From sequence record FJ373894: a stretch of DNA of 64,000 nt. One strand, given 5' to 3'. Positions within the stretch are counted from its first letter, which is position 1. The number at the start of each line of letters is the position of its first letter. A program made the position numbers and the translations under genes. Shown here one piece after another: positions 16,095 through 63,595 of this stretch. This DNA comes from Shigella phage Ag3. Below the pieces are notes generated by a model. That model did no database searches, was not told the DNA's origin, and was given only the letters and a program-made list of their open reading frames with translations.

Positions 16095-16128
16095 GGGACG
16101 TCGCTTTGGCTTTCTGTATGGGGGCTGT

Positions 16129-16542
16129 ATGCCTCCTCGTGTTAATCATTGTAAAAACGGTATTGTCATCATGATCATTGCAGTGGATTTTGATGGGACT
16201 TGTGTGACACATGAGTACCCAAAGATCGGGCGGGATATCGGTGCTGAAGACTGCCTGAAGAGGCTCGTTGCCAAAGGGCATCAACTGATTTTGTTCACGA
16301 TGCGTTCTGGAGCGGAATTGGAGCAAGCGAAAACCTGGTTCCATGTTCGTGGCATCCCTCTGTATGGGGTTAATACGAACCCATCACAGAAGACTTGGAC
16401 GGAGTCTCCAAAGGCATACGCTCAGGTTTACATCGACGACGCTGCTCTTGGCTGTCCTCTCGTGTGGGATGAAATTTCCAATCGCCCCTGCGTGAATTGG
16501 CCAGAGATAGAACGCATGTTAAAGAAGAGAGGCATCTTATGA
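16129..16542 (+). CDS. putative HAD-family phosphatase
   Basis: DxDGT-type motif IIAVDFDGT near N-terminus; start ambiguous (ATG 16129 or 16171). Confidence 0.4.
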   Translation: MPPRVNHCKNGIVIMIIAVDFDGTCVTHEYPKIGRDIGAEDCLKRLVAKGHQLILFTMRSGAELEQAKTWFHVRGIPLYGVNTNPSQKTWTESPKAYAQVYIDDAALGCPLVWDEISNRPCVNWPEIERMLKKRGIL

Positions 16543-16947: not shown

Positions 16948-17262
16948 ATGACCCCATTAAAAGAAATGTATGAGCGCCTGGCTGAACTGCAGGCGAAGGA
17001 AAAGCGCTTCTCAGAAGATGAGTCTGAAATCGCCGAGCTGAACAACCTGATTGCCACTCGCGAGAAATACCTGCAGCGCTACATTAATCACCCGCCGCGC
17101 ATGGTAGACCGCGTCAGCACTATCATGGACCTGGATGAAGTTACTCCTGGTAAAGAAATCATTGCCAGAGAAGTTCACCAGATGGTCGCCATGGGTCAGA
17201 TCTTCGGTCGTGCAGACCAGGACGATATGATCTTCCTCCTTGAAAAGAAACTGGTGATGTGA
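16948..17262 (+). CDS. hypothetical protein
   Basis: 104 aa; AAGAGGAA RBS. Confidence 0.45.
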   Translation: MTPLKEMYERLAELQAKEKRFSEDESEIAELNNLIATREKYLQRYINHPPRMVDRVSTIMDLDEVTPGKEIIAREVHQMVAMGQIFGRADQDDMIFLLEKKLVM

Positions 17263-23940: not shown

Positions 23941-24606
23941 TCAGATTCCGTGGGCTTGTATTAGCTCACGGAGTCTCTGTTTTGAATATGTTGTATCCTC
24001 ATCCGGAACTACAGCATTCGTCTTCCTGAGCAGGAAAGCCTCAGAGTTCCAGTAGACGTCCTCCCGCAGCTGGGTGTCATACAGGTGGATGAACCCCACT
24101 ATCTTGTTCAGACCAACCAGGAACCACATCGGGAACCGCTTGGTGATGATGTCTGTCAGCAGCGCCGGGTGCCCCTGGCCTGTACCCTTCACATAATCAA
24201 TGAACGTCAGGTTGCGCTCTTTGATGGCCGGGATCATCTCCCTCTCGAACTCCTCAAGGAAGTTGTATGTGAAGTTGTCGTATAGCTTGCGATATTCATC
24301 ATAATTCGATTGCGCCTGGCGGGTAAGCAATGTTGTTACCCAGGTCTTTGGTGATTTGATGAAGTTGGCGATGATGTAATTCTCTACCACTTCACCCTGG
24401 GATGTTTCGAACCGACGAGCCAGGCGAGCAAACTGTTTGCACACGGCTTCCTTCGCCAAGAAGGTTTCGAACTTGTAGTTCATCGGTCCATACAAACTGT
24501 AGTCGAAGTCCTTGGTGGTGAAGTGCAGCTTGATCGCCATGAAGACACAGTAAACGTTGAACGCCCGTTCAAACTGCATTTTTTCCCAATCGGTATACTC
24601 ACGCAT
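23941..24606 (-). CDS. gp59-like helicase loader
   Basis: 221 aa (T4 gp59 about 217); N-terminal hydrophobic/aromatic pattern similar to T4 gp59 as recalled; moderate. Confidence 0.4.
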   Translation of the reverse strand: MREYTDWEKMQFERAFNVYCVFMAIKLHFTTKDFDYSLYGPMNYKFETFLAKEAVCKQFARLARRFETSQGEVVENYIIANFIKSPKTWVTTLLTRQAQSNYDEYRKLYDNFTYNFLEEFEREMIPAIKERNLTFIDYVKGTGQGHPALLTDIITKRFPMWFLVGLNKIVGFIHLYDTQLREDVYWNSEAFLLRKTNAVVPDEDTTYSKQRLRELIQAHGI

Positions 24607-25294
24607 TTTTCATTTCCTCGAAAAACTTAACCCAATTCTCATCATTGTACGGCACCCATCCTTTTTGAAATCTTTGTATGCAACTTTTGGCGGTCATTTC
24701 GGCGCGATCTACCCCCAATTCCTTGGCCATCGTTACATTTCGACATATGCCCAACCTGGCACCATCGGCTACCCACCAATCATAGAATACTCCTGCCAAA
24801 GCCCAATATTTGCGGGTATGCTTCGCATTTGGACTCTCCCAAGGCTTTGAATGGATTTGTTTTAATTTGGAACGTTGTGAATCTGATTTGGGTCTGTCCA
24901 TCAGCGAATCGGAAATTTTCGATCTGTGTTCGCGGGATAACGCCACCCCCTTGAATCTTTCACTGCATTTTCGTTTAAACTCTGGAGTGCTGTTGGCTGC
25001 CTTCATCCTTTCCCATTTTCTGAGAGCAAACTCTTCATATTGGCGTGAAGTTTGTGATTTTGATCTATTTCTCATCAAAGAAAAGATTTTCACGTATGCA
25101 GGGGACATACTGAATATCTTGGCCAAAAGTTTGTGAACTATGAAATGCTCCCGAGCAGTTAGAACAGCAATATTCTCCGCAGTATCACTCCCTCCCAAGC
25201 TCCTGGGTTCTCTATGGTGTCTTTCTGAATACCCAATCAGATTGCGAGAATAAGACCTTTCAAGGATAGAAAACAACGCTCGGGTGTAGTTCAT
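24599..25294 (-). CDS. HNH homing endonuclease
   Basis: HNH motif ERHHREPRSLGGSDTAENIAVLTAREH; paralogous to ORF 55663..56355 (shared MNY.., GYSE.HH..P..GGSD, KPWESP, GWNP motifs). Confidence 0.75.
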   Translation of the reverse strand: MNYTRALFSILERSYSRNLIGYSERHHREPRSLGGSDTAENIAVLTAREHFIVHKLLAKIFSMSPAYVKIFSLMRNRSKSQTSRQYEEFALRKWERMKAANSTPEFKRKCSERFKGVALSREHRSKISDSLMDRPKSDSQRSKLKQIHSKPWESPNAKHTRKYWALAGVFYDWWVADGARLGICRNVTMAKELGVDRAEMTAKSCIQRFQKGWVPYNDENWVKFFEEMKNA

Positions 25295-25629
25295 TTGCGC
25301 TTCCTCTTATTTCGCCCAGCTTCTACATCATTTAGTTTCAGCCAGTTGGTCTCCTTGACGTCAGAAGACCCCCAGCCCTGGGATTCATGGTGTTTGATGT
25401 ATTTCATCAACTCTGGCATGAGGTCCAGTTCGTGAATAAACCGCAACACCAGCATGAACCGCTTGAAGGAAACAGGAATCTGTCGATACCCCATAGTCCA
25501 ATGGTTCACCACGTTAGAGCAAGACAGCACCCTTGTCAATGCGCTCTGGTTCATCCCCATCATCTTCAAGAATTTCAATAGGAACAGAGAGTCATTATTT
25601 TCCTTGACTTCTCGAAGTTTTGAAATCAT
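25291..25629 (-). CDS. putative XRE-type helix-turn-helix protein
   Basis: MNQSALTRVLSCSNVVNHWTMGYRQIP resembles Cro/C1-type HTH; start uncertain (25629 or an internal Met). Confidence 0.35.
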   Translation of the reverse strand: MISKLREVKENNDSLFLLKFLKMMGMNQSALTRVLSCSNVVNHWTMGYRQIPVSFKRFMLVLRFIHELDLMPELMKYIKHHESQGWGSSDVKETNWLKLNDVEAGRNKRKRK

Positions 25630-25852: not shown

Positions 25853-25853
25853 A

Positions 25854-26099
25854 TTACACCTCTTTGTGATTCTTCATCTTGCGAACAGTGCCCACAAATC
25901 CAAGATCCTTCCCACAGTGGGTGCAGATAGCATGGCAAGCACGGTTCTCGCGGTAGGTGCTGTGCTTACAGCGCCATTGCCTGAAAGCCGAACGGATAAC
26001 CGGAATCATGCCGATACAGAAGAGGACCAGGAACACGATACCGGATATCTGAAGTTCAACCAAGAACTTCGCCCACCAGAAACTCATATACTCGCCCAT
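25854..26099 (-). CDS. small membrane protein with C-terminal zinc-ribbon-like motif
   Basis: About 81 aa from ATG 26099 (GGAG upstream); TM helix, then C-x6-C-x2-H-C (CHAICTHC); overlaps the ligase 3' end by about 44 nt. Confidence 0.35.
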   Translation of the reverse strand: MGEYMSFWWAKFLVELQISGIVFLVLFCIGMIPVIRSAFRQWRCKHSTYRENRACHAICTHCGKDLGFVGTVRKMKNHKEV

Positions 26100-29284: not shown

Positions 29285-29626
29285 TTATTTCTTCGGGGGT
29301 TTAATTGAGGTGAAAGAATCCTTCCAACTCTTGAATTGTTCAACCAGGGCTTCTTTACCCAGCTCGCCATTTGACACGCTGTGAACGTAGGCGAATGCTC
29401 CATAGCCGGATCCTGGCATAGCCTTGCAGATGCGCAGACTGACCAAAGACTCGCCCACAGAAACAAGGTAATGGTCGCGGCGATTGTTCATGGCATAGTG
29501 GTTGTCGTGAAACTTGTCGATAACAACACAGTTCTGAGGTTCGACGTCAATCGGTAGCCCGTTGGCTTCGGATCCACCGCGCCCAAGCACGCAGCCTGGG
29601 AATAATGTTTCTACGAGTGTGGTCAT
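29285..29626 (-). CDS. hypothetical protein
   Basis: 113 aa; TATAAT about 30 nt upstream; AAGGAAC RBS. Confidence 0.45.
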   Translation of the reverse strand: MTTLVETLFPGCVLGRGGSEANGLPIDVEPQNCVVIDKFHDNHYAMNNRRDHYLVSVGESLVSLRICKAMPGSGYGAFAYVHSVSNGELGKEALVEQFKSWKDSFTSIKPPKK

Positions 29627-29654
29627 GGTCTGTTCCTTCTGTAAGTTCCCATGT

Positions 29655-54683: not shown

Positions 54684-54716
54684 AGCGATCCTCGGTTTGT
54701 GTTATAAGCAGGTTTT

Positions 54717-54722
54717 ATTATA
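54717..54722 (-). promoter_or_regulatory. -10 element (TATAAT) candidate for nrdA
   Basis: Exact TATAAT on minus strand about 34 nt upstream of the nrdA ATG; preceded by a GC-rich hairpin. Confidence 0.3.
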
Positions 54723-54768
54723 CGCCGCCCTCGTAGATTGAAGGCGGCGGGGAGTGTTGGTGAGTTAC

Positions 54769-55641
54769 TTAAATGTCGTACAGATCGTTGACTTCCAGCA
54801 TCAGGCGGGTGAAGTCCCCGCGCCCGTTGCGGTCGGTCTTGTTGAATTCGATGATGCTGAACGGCTGAACCCATTCAGGATATTCATCACCGACACCAAC
54901 ACCATCGATCTTCAGAGTTCCGGCCTCCAGCTTGGCGTTGAAGTCGCGGAAGGAACCGACGTACTTTTCCAGGGCGCTATCACGCAGGCGCTTGTTGGAC
55001 TGTTTGATGTCACCGTTGACAAAGATGTAGGTTGAATCAGATGCGCGAGTCAGCAGGTTCTTCAGCTGCTCCATATCGCATTCTTGGGCTTCTTCGATGA
55101 TCAGGAAGGTGTCGTCAAAGGTCATCCCCTTGATGGTCTCCAGATCCTGGATCTCGATGATCCGCTTCTCCCACAGGTAGTTGAAGAAACCGTCGCTGCC
55201 AGTATCGGTCTTCAGCACCTTCTTCAACGTCTGAATCAGGGGCATCAGGTATGGCATGAGCTTTTCGTATGTGTCACCAGGACGGAAGCCTGCTGTCTGG
55301 CCTGTTGGCAGCGGAGAGCGCGTGATGACGATCTTGCTGACAACTTTATCGATCAGTAGCTTGGCGGCGGCTGAGGCACCACAGTACGATTTACCTGTAC
55401 CAGCAGGACCGATCGCGATGGTGAGGTTTTCTTCAAGAGCAGATTGATATGCGAGGTTCTGATTCTCTGAGAGGCCATTGAACGGAGCGATTCTGAAGTC
55501 ACCTTTGGAGAACTTCATCCAGTCATCTTCTTTCTGAACAGTCTCTTTCTTACGTGCTGACTTGGTCTTGCCCGCTGGCTTCATACTTACAACTTTGGTG
55601 GCAGATTGCATGGGAACCTTCCTATATCTCAGGGGTGTCAT
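54769..55641 (-). CDS. phoH: PhoH-like ATPase
   Basis: Walker A GPAGTGKS, Walker B-like FLIIEEAQ; 290 aa. Confidence 0.8.
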   Translation of the reverse strand: MTPLRYRKVPMQSATKVVSMKPAGKTKSARKKETVQKEDDWMKFSKGDFRIAPFNGLSENQNLAYQSALEENLTIAIGPAGTGKSYCGASAAAKLLIDKVVSKIVITRSPLPTGQTAGFRPGDTYEKLMPYLMPLIQTLKKVLKTDTGSDGFFNYLWEKRIIEIQDLETIKGMTFDDTFLIIEEAQECDMEQLKNLLTRASDSTYIFVNGDIKQSNKRLRDSALEKYVGSFRDFNAKLEAGTLKIDGVGVGDEYPEWVQPFSIIEFNKTDRNGRGDFTRLMLEVNDLYDI

Positions 55642-55662
55642 CTAATACTAAAGGACAAACAT

Positions 55663-56355
55663 CTATTGATTTACAAAACCTAACCATCCCGCGTCTTCTT
55701 TTGGGTTCCAACCATCTTTGAATTTATTGACCATAGTCCTCAATGAATTGTTCGGAGAGACGAAACCGAAATATCTACCGAGTCTGCAATATCCTTCTTG
55801 TTTTAATTTCCATTTCTCATAGTATTTATCGGCATCTTTCCATATCTTTAACGTGGTGGCGTTGGAAGCTGGGCTTTCCCAAGGAGGAACGCCTTTCATT
55901 TTGGAGTACATGTCTTTCATTTTATCCGGATAAAGTTTATGCATATTCTTCATTCTTTCCGAAGATTCTTTCCTTATATTTGGATTCTCTGAATTCAAAC
56001 GCTTCATCCTTTCCGATCTCATTTTTCTTAATTCAGGATCTTCTTTGCACCTCAGTTTGTGGGCAATTGAGGACTTCCTGCGAAGCCAACCATGAGTTTT
56101 GTTGTTTCTTCCGTTGTGTGGGTTGTAACCACCCATCATGTTGGCGGCGAATATCAATTTCCTGTTGTCTGGGTGCATCTTTACGAGCAAGAGATGAGCA
56201 ACATAATGTTCTTCCGGCGTCAGGCGAACAAGGTTGTCGGGGTTGTCCGAACCACCCATGCATTTCGGCACAACATGATGCAATTCGGAATATCCTTCTA
56301 TGGTTCTTTGTTTGGCTTTGTTGATTAGTGACTGATAGATATTGGCGTAGTTCAT
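55663..56355 (-). CDS. HNH homing endonuclease
   Basis: HNH motif ELHHVVPKCMGGSDNPDNLVRLTPEEH; paralog of ORF 24599..25294. Confidence 0.75.
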   Translation of the reverse strand: MNYANIYQSLINKAKQRTIEGYSELHHVVPKCMGGSDNPDNLVRLTPEEHYVAHLLLVKMHPDNRKLIFAANMMGGYNPHNGRNNKTHGWLRRKSSIAHKLRCKEDPELRKMRSERMKRLNSENPNIRKESSERMKNMHKLYPDKMKDMYSKMKGVPPWESPASNATTLKIWKDADKYYEKWKLKQEGYCRLGRYFGFVSPNNSLRTMVNKFKDGWNPKEDAGWLGFVNQ

Positions 56356-56441
56356 AGAGCACCTCCATATGCTCTAATTAAGGCGATAACCCAGCATACC
56401 CGAGGGGTGGATAAAGAAAAAGGCCGTTTCCGGCCTTTGAG

Positions 56442-57254
56442 TTAACTGAAACTCTTGTATGCAGCAGCGAGCTTCGTGTCGTACTGGTTCTTGGCATACG
56501 CCGGACCATTATAGCGCCGCGCAAACTCAGCCCAGTTCTTGTCCTTCAGAGCCTGCCAGAGCTTGACGTCGGCCTTGATGAACTTCACGAATGCCATCAG
56601 ATGAGCACGTTCGCCTGTCAGGAAGTCATTGAACATCTCCTTGGCGTTGGCGTACCCACAGACCTGGCAGTTGAAGCCCATGATCTGGAAGAGGCCGTAT
56701 GAAGCGCTCTCGTACGCACAATCCTCATCGATGTTGATGGCTGCGTGAAGTCGATCCAACTCCGCGTCGCCGCCCGTGTACCCGCCTGCCACTGGACTGA
56801 CAAGGGTTGGATACATCTGACCAGCAGCATTCGCCCGAGCCTGCCCGAACTTCGCCATCATCTTCTTGTACATGATGTGACGCTCAAACAACGTCTTGAT
56901 CTTACCAGACTTGGTGAAGCCAGTGCCACGGGATTCAACCTGATTGACTGCCTTCACAGAGGCGAGGTCAACTCCCAGCTGGTTGGCTGCGTCGATAAGG
57001 TCAGCCTCAGTCAGGTGATCCTGATGAGAGTCTCCGGCGTTGCGAATAGCATAGGAGGTCTTTGGACCCACAATACCATCAATGACAAGCCCCGCACCCG
57101 CCTGAACAGTCTTGACAGCGTTCTCTGTTGCCTTACCAAAGATGCCGTCAGCGACGAGGGTGAAGCCGATTTTGTTGAGGCTCTGCTGAAGTGATTTGAC
57201 TTCAGAGCCGCGTGTGCCAAGTTTTAGAATGGCCATAAGAAAATACCTCCGCAA
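56442..57254 (-). CDS. endolysin (peptidoglycan-binding domain plus muramidase/transglycosylase-like domain)
   Basis: N-terminal PG_binding_1-like repeat (LKLGTRGSEVKSLQQSLNKIGF...DGIFGKATENAVKTVQ); C-terminal catalytic signature ESASYGLFQIMGFN; start 57254 or ATG 57236. Confidence 0.65.
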   Translation of the reverse strand: MRRYFLMAILKLGTRGSEVKSLQQSLNKIGFTLVADGIFGKATENAVKTVQAGAGLVIDGIVGPKTSYAIRNAGDSHQDHLTEADLIDAANQLGVDLASVKAVNQVESRGTGFTKSGKIKTLFERHIMYKKMMAKFGQARANAAGQMYPTLVSPVAGGYTGGDAELDRLHAAINIDEDCAYESASYGLFQIMGFNCQVCGYANAKEMFNDFLTGERAHLMAFVKFIKADVKLWQALKDKNWAEFARRYNGPAYAKNQYDTKLAAAYKSFS

Positions 57255-61738: not shown

Positions 61739-63595
61739 TCAGATTTTAATCTGCATGTTGCCGCCCAGGGACTGCTCATACTCACTGTATGCGCTCTCCC
61801 CGTCGTCTTTCGCCCACTGGTCAGACTGCTGGGCGCGAGCCAGAGTCATCAGGTTTGGTTCAGTCGGGTTGTAACCCTTGGATTTCGCATCCTGGTACAG
61901 AGTCTGCAGGTACTGGTTGGCGCGGTCAATCTGAGCTTTGAACTCGCGATATGCACCTTCAGTTGTATTGCGGCGGAAGGTGATATCCCAGTCCACGTTC
62001 AGAGTCTGACCATCACGGCTTGCATAGATCTGCCAATCCAGGTCGCGACCTTTTGGAGCGTTGTCGCGGATGGAACCAGCGTATGTTGCAAGGTCAACAC
62101 CAGTCTTCTTAGCAGTATCCGGTTCTTTATCCAGGCGTTCTGTTTCTTTGGACAGGATACCCAACATAAATTCATTGGTGCGGCGATCCGCCATGTCGTG
62201 CCCGCGCCAAAGGACTGAACCGTTGTTGTCAACAAAAATGTCGTCCAAAAATACTTGTTTCGGATTATGTGACGTGCTGTTCAGAGTTTGCATATTCCGA
62301 GATATCATTTCCATTTTAGAAGAAATTTCATCGATCACGGCCTGAACAATATCTTTCTTCAAAGGAAGTTCATATGTCTTCGGATTGTTCAACAGTCGCC
62401 CTTTCTGAGAGATCATCGGCGTGAACGCGACTTTTCCTTTGTCGTAGTAATAGGTCACATTCGTGGTCAATACAGCACCATCATACTTCCCAGTTTTCGG
62501 GAAATTGACACCAGACCAAGTGATGGACATACCGTTGACAGTCTCACCAAACACCATGGCGTTGCGCGGCATCTTCAGGGTTCCAGAGTTGACCAGATCA
62601 GCGCCCTGGGCATTCAGGTCGATAGAACCATAGATGGTCCCGCTACGATCTTTCAGCATCAGGGTCTTGTCGCCCTTCTCTGGGATGATTTCCAGCAGGT
62701 GCTTGCCGCGCAGAGGCTCTTTGTTGAGTTCCAACAGAGCAGTGTTCCCTGGTTTCACACGATTCAGGACAGCGTCGGTCACTTTCAGAGTCCAGTTTGC
62801 GGTCTCAACATAACCCCAACCCTGAGAATGGCGAATACCCTTGATAGGGTAAGGGGCGCTCATCGGCACTGCGCTAATTTCCCATTCGCCGCGATACTGA
62901 TGTTCGGCCACGTATGTGATCGTTTCCATGATTTCGTTTGCCACCCGACGAGCATCGCCAGAGATGACACCAGGCTGAGTTTCGATTTCAGAGAACACGT
63001 TGTAGGTCAGATTCTTGCCATCGACTGAATCGAAGCTGACGATGATCACCAGACCACCTTTAGTTTGATAACGCGCCTGTCCGATCTTCTTAATGCTTTC
63101 CCCTGGGAGATAGCTTGCTTTCTGGTCAATGTTGGTATCAATGATACCCAGAACACGAGCGATGAAACCGCTGTCACGCAATTGATCGATACTGGTTGCC
63201 CCGATTGTGGTGTTGGAGTCAGCTGGCGCGGACTTCTGCTGAGAACCTTTCCAAAATTTTGTGGACGCCGTGGTGAAATCATTCAGGATACTGATAGGGA
63301 CTTGCGGTAATTTCAACTGACGAGCAATGAAATCAGCACTTTGCCCACGCACAGATTTCTCATTCATGTATGCGCCAACATACACGCCTGGCTCATTGTA
63401 GTGGGGAGCGATATTTGCCGTGTTCATGCGGCCTCTCTCCTTACCAACCCATATCAACATGGGTTGATCCCCGTTTGAAGTTAATTTCCATCCGTTGGAA
63501 TCATCAACAGAAGATGAAGCCCCCACATCTGGGGTATTGTCCTGAACCGGAACGTCGCCGACCTTGTCCGGGTCATCCCATGTGATGCCCTGCAT
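61739..63595 (-). CDS. large hypothetical protein
   Basis: About 618 aa from ATG 63595 (or GTG 63658, 639 aa); no catalytic motif recognised. Confidence 0.45.
   Translation of the reverse strand: MQGITWDDPDKVGDVPVQDNTPDVGASSSVDDSNGWKLTSNGDQPMLIWVGKERGRMNTANIAPHYNEPGVYVGAYMNEKSVRGQSADFIARQLKLPQVPISILNDFTTASTKFWKGSQQKSAPADSNTTIGATSIDQLRDSGFIARVLGIIDTNIDQKASYLPGESIKKIGQARYQTKGGLVIIVSFDSVDGKNLTYNVFSEIETQPGVISGDARRVANEIMETITYVAEHQYRGEWEISAVPMSAPYPIKGIRHSQGWGYVETANWTLKVTDAVLNRVKPGNTALLELNKEPLRGKHLLEIIPEKGDKTLMLKDRSGTIYGSIDLNAQGADLVNSGTLKMPRNAMVFGETVNGMSITWSGVNFPKTGKYDGAVLTTNVTYYYDKGKVAFTPMISQKGRLLNNPKTYELPLKKDIVQAVIDEISSKMEMISRNMQTLNSTSHNPKQVFLDDIFVDNNGSVLWRGHDMADRRTNEFMLGILSKETERLDKEPDTAKKTGVDLATYAGSIRDNAPKGRDLDWQIYASRDGQTLNVDWDITFRRNTTEGAYREFKAQIDRANQYLQTLYQDAKSKGYNPTEPNLMTLARAQQSDQWAKDDGESAYSEYEQSLGGNMQIKI

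Follow-up and report, generated by a model that had tools for sequence, protein, structure and literature searches.

In T4-like and ViI-like phages, free-standing HNH homing endonucleases of the Mob type are a textbook feature. The T4 Mob proteins (MobA to MobE, of which MobE has been characterised) combine an HNH domain with a distinct C-terminal region, nick DNA and are encoded in promoter-less cassettes that can be translationally coupled (PMC2988022). The free-standing endonucleases of T4 often cut hundreds of base pairs away from their insertion site (PMC2988022). The HNH nicking homing enzymes I-HmuI and I-HmuII of Bacillus phages, which pair an N-terminal nuclease with a DNA-binding C-terminal part, are cited as behaving like MobA and MobE (PMC2988022). 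Another free-standing T4 enzyme, SegG, is among the "intronless homing" cassettes; its gene, located between genes 32 and 59, directly precedes an essential replication gene and embeds the expression signals of the latter in its coding sequence (PMC2988022). Within the Ackermannviridae, Mob-like HNH endonucleases have been described from Dickeya phage LIMEstone1 as F-LimIV and F-LimV, with proteins of Shigella phage AG3 listed as their best homologues, "MobC/MobE (phiSboM-AG3)" (PMC3296691). The text of the AG3 genome paper makes no mention of homing endonucleases (PMC3121705). Both genes treated below are already annotated as such in the AG3 record.

Here we describe these two genes, HNH1 and HNH2, and the structure of the loci in which they lie. 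The window, that is, the whole stretch of DNA that was analysed, comprises 64,000 nucleotides of Shigella phage AG3 (Ackermannviridae, Agtrevirus). The ORFs that a preliminary description had listed at both loci are all present (Table 1). At locus 1 the gp59-like gene starts within the final 8 nt of HNH1 (24599..24606), an overlap that had been noted correctly, and the stop codon of the small upstream ORF overlaps the HNH1 start (ATGA). The reported position of HNH2, between phoH and the endolysin gene, was likewise confirmed from the ORFs. The flanking ORFs are complete at both loci and collinear with those of relatives, and neither HNH gene is found in an intron or intein. An intron- or intein-encoded type was rejected because both genes lie between complete genes and the empty sites fall either in intergenic DNA or at the junction of two genes. 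No third copy was found in the whole window by tblastn with both proteins.

Table 1. Features of the two endonuclease loci in the window.
Feature	Position	Strand	Evidence and remarks
gp59-like DNA helicase loader	23941..24606	-	phrog_269, E=7e-62; identical to the AG3 Gp59-like loader
Recoded gp59 5' end, first 33 nt (MREYTDWEKMQ)	24574..24606	-	physical linkage to HNH1
Locus 1 segment missing in P46FS4	24595..25291	.	blastn breakpoints and junction sequences; 3 nt in its place
HNH1, putative free-standing Mob-type HNH homing endonuclease gene	24599..25294	-	ORF, 231 aa; identical to AG3 YP_003358523.1
Small ORF, AG3 gp037	25291..25629	-	112 aa; phrog_4600, E=1.6e-38
phoH	54769..~55611		
Locus 2 segment missing in P46FS4, ChubbyThor, CAU_YEP3 and pSal-SNUABM-02	55643..56371	.	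blastn breakpoints
HNH2, putative free-standing Mob-type HNH homing endonuclease gene	55663..56355	-	ORF, 230 aa; 100% identical to AG3 "putative homing endonuclease"
Cassette leader GAGCATATGGAGGTGCTC, inverted repeat with GGAGG Shine-Dalgarno in the loop	56357..56374	-	immediately before the HNH2 ATG
Intrinsic terminator following the endolysin gene and preceding the HNH2 cassette	56419..56438	-	terminator scan; conserved in empty-site relatives
Muramidase endolysin	56442..~57236		

Judged by their sequences and one structural model, HNH1 and HNH2 are very probably free-standing homing endonucleases of the T4 Mob type. Both proteins match PHROG 655 "homing endonuclease" (phrog_655) over their full length (E=2.6e-54 for HNH1 and 1.4e-62 for HNH2). 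T4 mobE and mobD are among their tblastn matches; the identity to the T4 proteins is 28-35% and covers part of the length. The motif HH-x2-P-x4-GG-x5-N-x4-T-x2-EH-x3-H is present in both, and in the alignment the family-invariant catalytic residues H26, H27, N41, H50 and H54 are intact in both. Shared with the T4 Mob family are the N-terminal HNH pattern MNY...HH..P...GG.D..N...LT..EH...H, a length of about 210-270 aa, a distinct C-terminal region and a free-standing location flanked by conserved genes, with genes of nucleotide metabolism and replication nearby. The Pfam HNH matches fall below the gathering threshold (15 bits versus 21.4; E 0.02-0.03).

Further support for this classification came from the AF2 model of HNH1 (pLDDT 91.6), which has a beta-beta-alpha arrangement at residues 24-60 (E24-27, E42-45, H47-60). 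In BFVD, Foldseek paired this model with homing endonucleases of phages, among them T4 MobC and MobB, with E about 1e-5. Against the PDB the best matches were HNH domains, including those of colicin E9 and pyocin S2, on which the HNH1 core superposes with an rmsd of 0.8-0.9 A over 33-34 residues; the E-values of these matches are not significant, probably because the HNH1 model is elongated and multi-domain. A search of PDB sequences found no match for HNH1, and for HNH2 it matched just the short HNH motif in McrA, in a pyocin and in Cas8-HNH. I-HmuI and I-HmuII, which differ from the AG3 proteins in being intron-encoded, are absent from both the PDB sequence matches and the Foldseek PDB matches.

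Each protein has a beta-beta-alpha-metal nuclease towards its N-terminus (about residues 20-60), followed by a helical stretch and a conserved C-terminal domain, PWE...GW.P..D..W. This last is presumably the DNA-binding domain, and its segment has matches in PHROGs 25551, 26163 and 7504, which contain only endonucleases. Neither NUMOD3 nor any other named DNA-binding domain was found in either window protein (Pfam, E<=0.1); PF07460 is present in many of the HNH homologues. The C-terminal domain is common to Ackermannviridae and related phages, and not every T4 Mob has the same one. The AG3 genes also differ from the T4 Mobs in their insertion sites, the gp59 start and the endolysin-phoH spacer.

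The preliminary description took both genes as free-standing HNH homing-endonuclease genes that mark insertion sites, and the comparison with relatives supports this. Close relatives, otherwise 96-99% identical, lack exactly the segments delimited in Table 1. In an indel scan against P46FS4, HNH1 and HNH2 are the only endonuclease-sized insertions between 14 and 64 kb of the window. The GC content of the cassettes is 41-44%, versus 50% for the window. Full-length HNH1 orthologues with at least 90% identity are present in at least five other genomes examined (ChubbyThor, A221, CECAV_050, SW16-7 and PC3), and the orthologue of RPN242 is frameshifted. F-LimIV and F-LimV come from a phage of the same family and are likewise Mob-like HNH enzymes, but their sites differ (the downstream genes are ORF33 and the DNA primase), and LIMEstone1 is naive at both AG3 sites.

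Aligned with each other, the two proteins match end to end (residues 1-227 versus 1-230, 29% identity, E=1e-27), and the similarity therefore extends well past the HNH motif. Among the motifs that had been listed as shared, MNY and GGSD are found in both proteins. PWESP is also common to the two, in the form KPWESP in HNH1 and PPWESP in HNH2, whereas GWNP occurs only in HNH2 and reads GWVP in HNH1. The earlier wording, two copies of one HNH lineage, holds for the family and the architecture but is overstated given the 29% identity and the closer same-site endonucleases in other genera. An HNH1 homologue from Erwinia phage Bue1 (48%) is encoded directly upstream of the gp59-like gene. The same-site homologues of HNH2, between endolysin and phoH genes, come from a Logan contig (85%) and Klebsiella phage K5lambda5 (54%); an IMG/VR scan for close HNH2 relatives gave only one distant (37%) partial match. 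Recent intragenomic paralogy was rejected on the identity matrix. Because each gene is closer to the same-site endonucleases of other genera than to the other, the two would be family members with separate targets and not recent duplicates. By these identities, HNH1 and HNH2 are two site-specific sublineages, each recurring at its own site.

The small ORF upstream of HNH1 had been described as inserted together with the endonuclease gene. This was not borne out, as the ORF is found at the same position in relatives with HNH1 and in relatives without it (P46FS4, SKML-39, Gloob, EspM4VN, YX22, AV101, pSal-SNUABM-02 and LIMEstone1). It exists in two allelic forms, and HNH1 lies downstream of both. 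The ORF was accordingly rejected as a part of the cassette and is a resident phage gene. Its description as an XRE-type HTH protein is tentative. In favour are an AF2 model with five helices, which is of low confidence (pLDDT 61.5), and a sub-threshold HTH_26 match in the remote tandem-repeat homologue P0251 (E=0.0047, 17.6 bits versus a 22-bit cut-off). Against it, the ORF has no Pfam HTH, PDB sequence or significant Foldseek match. Pfam searches on 12 family members found no HTH family except for one HTH_Tnp_ISL3 match at E=0.11, the family profile matched nothing among PDB sequences, and Foldseek with the model gave no PDB match at E<5. An exhaustive representative search with the ORF yielded only 8 family matches. 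The motif GxxQSxLxRxLxCSxxVVNxWxxGYRxxP is HTH-like by eye only. An HTH nature is plausible.

The insertion point of HNH2 is the endolysin-phoH spacer. The empty-site junction is ...CCTTAATTA-AAGGT-GATGACACC..., and the naive spacer carries ...TCGCCTTAATTAAAGGTGATGACACCCC... The leader in front of HNH2 (Table 1) is identical in the three occupied loci that are known (the window, L022 and K5lambda5), though the proteins are only 54% identical. It forms a local 8-bp hairpin in the MFE fold, and the z-score of the whole fragment is not significant (z=-0.31). A regulatory role of the hairpin is suggested by this conservation, which takes the form of one identical sequence in all three loci and so carries no covariation. 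Apart from the endolysin terminator, scans for sigma-70 promoters and terminators in the surroundings of both loci gave no signal beyond that expected from shuffled sequence.

At locus 1 the presence of HNH1 is linked to a recoded gp59 5' end. The first 33 nt encode MREYTDWEKMQ in the genomes with HNH1 (9/9), and the N-terminus is MLTEWQKME in those examined without it (8/8). Between the closest relatives 33-45% of these 33 nt are mismatched, versus 2.5-3.6% in the rest of gp59, a more than tenfold difference in density. The Dickeya phages Kamild and Ds25CZ retain only a ~52-nt HNH1 stub (the last ~20 codons) together with the recoded gp59 end, and phiD3 and phiDP23.1 have the same recoded N-terminus. 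The stub looks like a decayed copy of HNH1. Relative to AG3, the recoded 33 nt of Kamild and Ds25CZ are 97% identical (32/33), the stub about 90% (59-nt bin) and the rest of gp59 87%. The higher identity of the recoded stretch between genera is an indirect hint of preferential inheritance.

The recoded end may be either an immunity allele or a co-transferred flank. A tentative reading, to which we give slightly less than an even chance, is that the HNH1 cassette brings a new translation-initiation region and a recoded gp59 N-terminus, and that the recoded end would make the carrier immune and would have been kept in Limestonevirus as a functional scar after loss of the nuclease. Given the distant cleavage common among free-standing T4 endonucleases, the HNH1 target does not necessarily lie at the recoded end. 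The arrangement recalls SegG in that both genes are free-standing and lie upstream of an essential replication gene with its expression signals. The two differ in that SegG is a GIY-YIG enzyme and supplies promoters for gene 32, whereas HNH1 supplies a Shine-Dalgarno sequence, a start codon and the recoded gp59 N-terminus.

By analogy with T4 MobA and MobE, during co-infection with a relative devoid of the gene the enzyme would nick or cut the relative's naive allele, at the empty site or close to it. Repair by recombination, with the AG3 genome as template, would then transfer the endonuclease gene to the recipient along with a short stretch of flanking sequence. HNH1 would be a promoter-less cassette within an operon: its ATG stands in for the old gp59 ATG behind the old Shine-Dalgarno sequence GAGGAA, and its last codons provide gp59 with a new GAGGAA-N7-ATG initiation region and the recoded N-terminus. 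HNH2 is an intergenic cassette that has a leader and a Shine-Dalgarno sequence of its own and lies between the endolysin terminator and phoH. Promoter-less, translationally coupled expression (HNH1) and a leader hairpin around the RBS (HNH2) are likenesses to the T4 Mob family. We infer the predicted enzymatic activity, the exact cleavage site and the protection of the carrier by the recoded gp59 end.

Alternatively, both genes could once have encoded homing endonucleases and since have become inactive or domesticated; their ORFs would have stayed intact after homing was lost because they are embedded in operons, where HNH1 provides gp59 with its initiation region and N-terminus. The survival of the HNH1 3' end in Dickeya phages that have lost the nuclease body points to a use independent of homing, and the frameshift in RPN242 is consistent with decay. 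Among the T4 Mobs themselves, only MobE is marked active in the published table, MobA nicks according to the text, and MobB, MobC and MobD are given as undetermined (PMC2988022). However, the catalytic residues are intact in both AG3 proteins without exception, and the highly similar HNH1 orthologues listed above are full-length. HNH1 is also found after either allele of the upstream ORF, and genera resemble each other more closely in its end segment than in the flanks; both points argue for recent lateral spread. We therefore regard a loss of homing as unlikely.

Less probable still, indeed very improbable, is a non-homing phage role, such as that of a packaging-associated HNH protein or the degradation of host or competitor DNA, with turnover of the genes by illegitimate recombination. 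HNH nucleases do have many roles, and free-standing endonucleases are known to cause, as a side effect, marker exclusion against competing phages (PMC2988022). But the AG3 genes are not near the terminase, and their full-length homology is to the Mob family, not to the small terminase-associated HNH proteins. The recurrence of the same lineage at the same site in different genera and the seamless insertions with a linked recoded flank are hallmarks of homing and not of random moron gain. Putative Mob-type homing endonucleases remain the preferred classification.

HNH1 and HNH2 are thus of an ordinary, already known kind and not a new kind of system, with little import beyond annotation. What is added here are the exact insertion boundaries, the separation of the resident small ORF from the cassette, the fidelity of each endonuclease lineage to its own site across Ackermannviridae genera, the linked recoded gp59 5' end and the apparently decayed Dickeya stubs. 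Such details can serve the comparative annotation of the Ackermannviridae and the choice of phage pairs for homing work; AG3, ChubbyThor, Gloob and MK-13, for instance, share Shigella boydii as a host. If the recoded gp59 end does act as carrier immunity that outlasts the nuclease, the locus would be a natural staged series (naive, occupied, frameshifted and stub) of the life cycle of a homing endonuclease in an essential replication gene.

Both HNH genes of Shigella phage Ag3 (phiSboM-AG3) encode members of one homing endonuclease family. HNH1, beside the gp59-like gene (locus 1), and HNH2 (locus 2) give full-length matches to PHROG 655 'homing endonuclease' (E=2.6e-54 and E=1.4e-62, respectively). 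They share E24, H26, H27, P30, G35, N41, T46, E49, H50 and H54, the family invariants in an alignment of 28 sequences. The tblastn matches of both proteins include hundreds of phage endonucleases, T4 mobE and mobD among them. Pfam HNH matches are sub-threshold for both; no NUMOD domain was found by Pfam in either, and PF07460 is present in many homologues. AlphaFold models HNH1 with high confidence (pLDDT 91.6): residues 24-60 form a beta-beta-alpha element, and helices come after it. The top PDB matches of the model are HNH domains (Cas8-HNH, McrA, colicin E9 and pyocin S2) at E-values that are not significant; with colicin E9 and pyocin S2 the superposition spans 33-34 residues at 0.8-0.9 A. 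In BFVD the matches are phage homing endonucleases (best E 1e-14), including T4 MobC and MobB.

The coordinates in the preliminary description were all reproduced in the ORF lists. The proteins of HNH1, HNH2, the small ORF upstream of HNH1 and gp59 match AG3 proteins exactly; the records read 'homing endonuclease' (YP_003358523.1), 'hypothetical protein' (gp037) and 'Gp59-like loader' (YP_003358522.1). From DNA searches the window belongs to the genus Agtrevirus (Ackermannviridae, subfamily Aglimvirinae), with ChubbyThor, P46FS4, SKML-39, Gloob and MK-13 as the nearest database relatives.

Features of the two loci and of the comparison sequences (window positions unless a related phage locus, L, is named)
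Feature	Position	Strand	Remarks
gp59-like gene	23941..24606	-	from ORF list
HNH1	24599..25294	-	231 aa; stop 8 nt inside gp59 start
Small ORF	25291..25629	-	112 aa; stop overlaps HNH1 ATG (ATGA)
HNH2	55663..56355	-	230 aa; phoH on one side, muramidase endolysin on the other
Absent from P46FS4, locus 1	24595..25291		3 nt instead
Absent from P46FS4, locus 2	55643..56371
Endolysin terminator	56419..56438
nrdA-phoH site	54684..54768		empty in window and in P46FS4
nrdA-phoH Mob-like gene	L005 1050..1709; L007 1045..1704; L008 1044..1703
HNH1 orthologue, RPN242	L013 1900..2595		frameshifted; annotated as 199-aa protein
HNH1 stub, Kamild	L025 1905..1965
HNH1 stub, Ds25CZ	L026 1911..1975
Gloob gp34	L004 2095..2262		55 aa; annotated 'formylmethanofuran dehydrogenase'
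Absent from P46FS4	29287..29639		353 bp, 2 nt instead; 113-aa ORF (29285..29626, -)
Replaced segment, ligase gene to membrane-protein ORFs	25853..26096		244 nt vs 217 nt in P46FS4
Extra 404 nt in P46FS4	~17250 (17248..17252)
Other short replaced or indel segments vs P46FS4	16095..16536; 62115..62362; 62900..63548

Comparison with relatives lacking the insertions, as had been proposed, gave precise boundaries at both loci against P46FS4. At locus 1 the identity is 97% on each flank. In the naive junction, ...GAGGAAGCGCAA ATG CTG A... in gene orientation, the small-ORF stop overlaps the gp59 start. In AG3 the HNH1 ATG occupies the exact place of the former gp59 ATG and the GAGGAA Shine-Dalgarno is reused; a new GAGGAA-N7-ATG for gp59 comes from the final HNH1 codons (TTC GAG GAA ATG AAA AAT GCG TGA). 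The first 33 nt of gp59 are altered with the insertion. The start ATGCGTGAGTATACCGATTGGGAAAAAATGCAG (MREYTDWEKMQ) is common to all nine HNH1-carrying genomes (the window, ChubbyThor, A221, CECAV_050, SW16-7, PC3 and RPN242, with SP-9-14 and PH4 via database match), and ATGCTGACAGAGTGGCAGAAGATGGAG (MLTEWQKME) is found in 8/8 HNH1-less genomes examined. In these 33 nt 33-45% of positions differ, vs 2.5-3.6% in the remainder of gp59 for the closest relatives, and polymorphisms deeper in gp59 do not correlate with HNH1 presence. In Gloob, gp34 lies between the small ORF and gp59, so that the locus 1 junction has taken up another, different insertion; its C-terminus (..NPRKREC) imitates the small-ORF end.

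The preliminary description had the small ORF inserted together with HNH1, which was not borne out. All relatives have the small ORF, as one of two alleles, long (112-113 aa) or short (~80 aa), and HNH1 occurs behind both; the small ORF is therefore a resident gene outside the inserted cassette. Its proposed helix-turn-helix (HTH) nature is plausible from the sequence motif. Among 12 family members, Pfam gave no HTH profile save one HTH_Tnp_ISL3 match (E=0.11), and the family profile found nothing in PDB sequences. The AF2 model has five helices at low confidence (pLDDT 61.5), and Foldseek returned no significant match. An exhaustive search yielded only eight representatives of the family. In one of them, the remote metagenomic homologue P0251 (190 aa), the domain is tandemly duplicated, and the first repeat matches Cro/C1 HTH_26 sub-threshold (E=0.0047).

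Locus 1 also records decay and lateral spread. The frameshift in the HNH1 orthologue of Escherichia phage RPN242 is either pseudogenisation or sequencing error, as is that apparent in its upstream small ORF. The Dickeya phages Kamild and Ds25CZ (Limestonevirus) have lost the small ORF and two membrane-protein ORFs as well as the HNH body, and carry the last ~20 HNH1 codons joined to the gp59 start in its recoded form; in phiD3 and phiDP23.1 the gp59 N-terminus is recoded identically. Kamild and Ds25CZ agree with AG3 in 32/33 positions (97%) of the recoded stretch and in only 87% of the remainder of gp59. The stub scores ~90% in a 59-nt bin and is by eye identical for ~52 nt up to the breakpoint. 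This greater similarity of recoded end and stub argues for transfer of the cassette end between genera. The stub with the recoded start is a decayed footprint of the HNH1 cassette in another genus and shows that the cassette end is kept after loss of the nuclease, presumably because it now supplies the gp59 start.

At locus 2 the flank towards phoH is 99% identical to P46FS4 and that towards the endolysin 96%; the site is also empty in ChubbyThor, CAU_YEP3 and pSal-SNUABM-02. The empty site reads ...GGGTGTGTCGCCTTAATTA-AAGGT-GATGACACCCCTGAGATATAGGAAGGTTCCC ATG(phoH) and the filled site ...CCTTAATTA-(GAGCATATGGAGGTGCTCT ATG ... TAG ...TTTAGTATTA)-GATGACACC..., with HNH2 inserted downstream of the endolysin terminator. 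Mechanical ORF calls run upstream of the relatives' starts for phoH (55611..55641) and endolysin (57236..57254); the true starts are likely the ATGs at 55611 and 57236. The same position holds HNH2 homologues in a Logan contig (85%) and in Klebsiella phage K5lambda5 (Taipeivirus, 54%), and the 18-nt leader GAGCATATGGAGGTGCTC is identical in all three. The leader allows an 8-bp hairpin around the Shine-Dalgarno; its folding energy is unexceptional and covariation was not found. One intergenic region away, in the nrdA-phoH spacer, other Agtrevirus phages (ChubbyThor, CAU_YEP3 and pSal-SNUABM-02) have a third HNH gene of the Mob-like type (48% identity to HNH2), with a hairpin and a TATAATA-like box ahead of it. 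HNH genes in neighbouring spacers of different isolates mark adjacent intergenic regions as alternative endonuclease landing sites.

The two genes had been described as copies of one HNH lineage. HNH1 and HNH2 align from first to last residue (29% identity, E=1e-27), so their similarity is not confined to the HNH motif and a single family stands; the pairwise identities separate them into distinct site-specific sublineages. HNH1 is 48% identical to its homologue directly upstream of the gp59-like gene in Erwinia phage Bue1, and 24-30% identical to the same-site homologues of HNH2 and to Mob-like genes at other sites. HNH2 is 54-85% identical to its same-site homologues and 41-48% to other-site Ackermannviridae Mob-like genes. 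A recent duplication was rejected, as each is closer to same-site homologues elsewhere than to the other. The cassettes are AT-richer than their surroundings (GC 43.5% and 41.3% vs 50.4% for the window). They are the sole endonuclease-sized insertions at 14-64 kb in an indel scan against P46FS4, and tblastn with both proteins found no third copy in the whole window. The ORF in the segment at 29287..29639 was rejected as an endonuclease because it is too small.

By analogy with T4 MobA and MobE, on co-infection with a relative the HNH enzymes would introduce a nick or a break into its naive allele; repair by recombination would then copy the endonuclease gene into that genome. The analysis establishes the family, the architecture, the polymorphism of the sites and the footprints, and from these and the analogy we infer the activity of HNH1 and HNH2, the position of cleavage and a role of the recoded gp59 end in immunity. 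For T4 free-standing endonucleases the cut can lie far from the site of insertion (PMC2988022), so the recoded end might instead be simply co-transferred donor flank. Many of the T4 free-standing endonuclease genes have no promoter, and some show translational coupling or regulation through RBS hairpins (PMC2988022).

That HNH homing endonuclease genes occupy insertion sites here was correctly recognised and was already known. Both genes are named homing endonucleases in the AG3 records. Free-standing HNH endonucleases of the Mob-like type are also on record for ViI-like phages: the LIMEstone1 paper gives 'MobC (phiSboM-AG3)' and 'MobE (phiSboM-AG3)' as best homologues of F-LimIV/F-LimV (PMC3296691). 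The present analysis adds, modestly, the precise limits of the insertions, the recoded start of gp59 that is linked to HNH1, the Dickeya phage stubs and the fidelity of each lineage to its site across genera.
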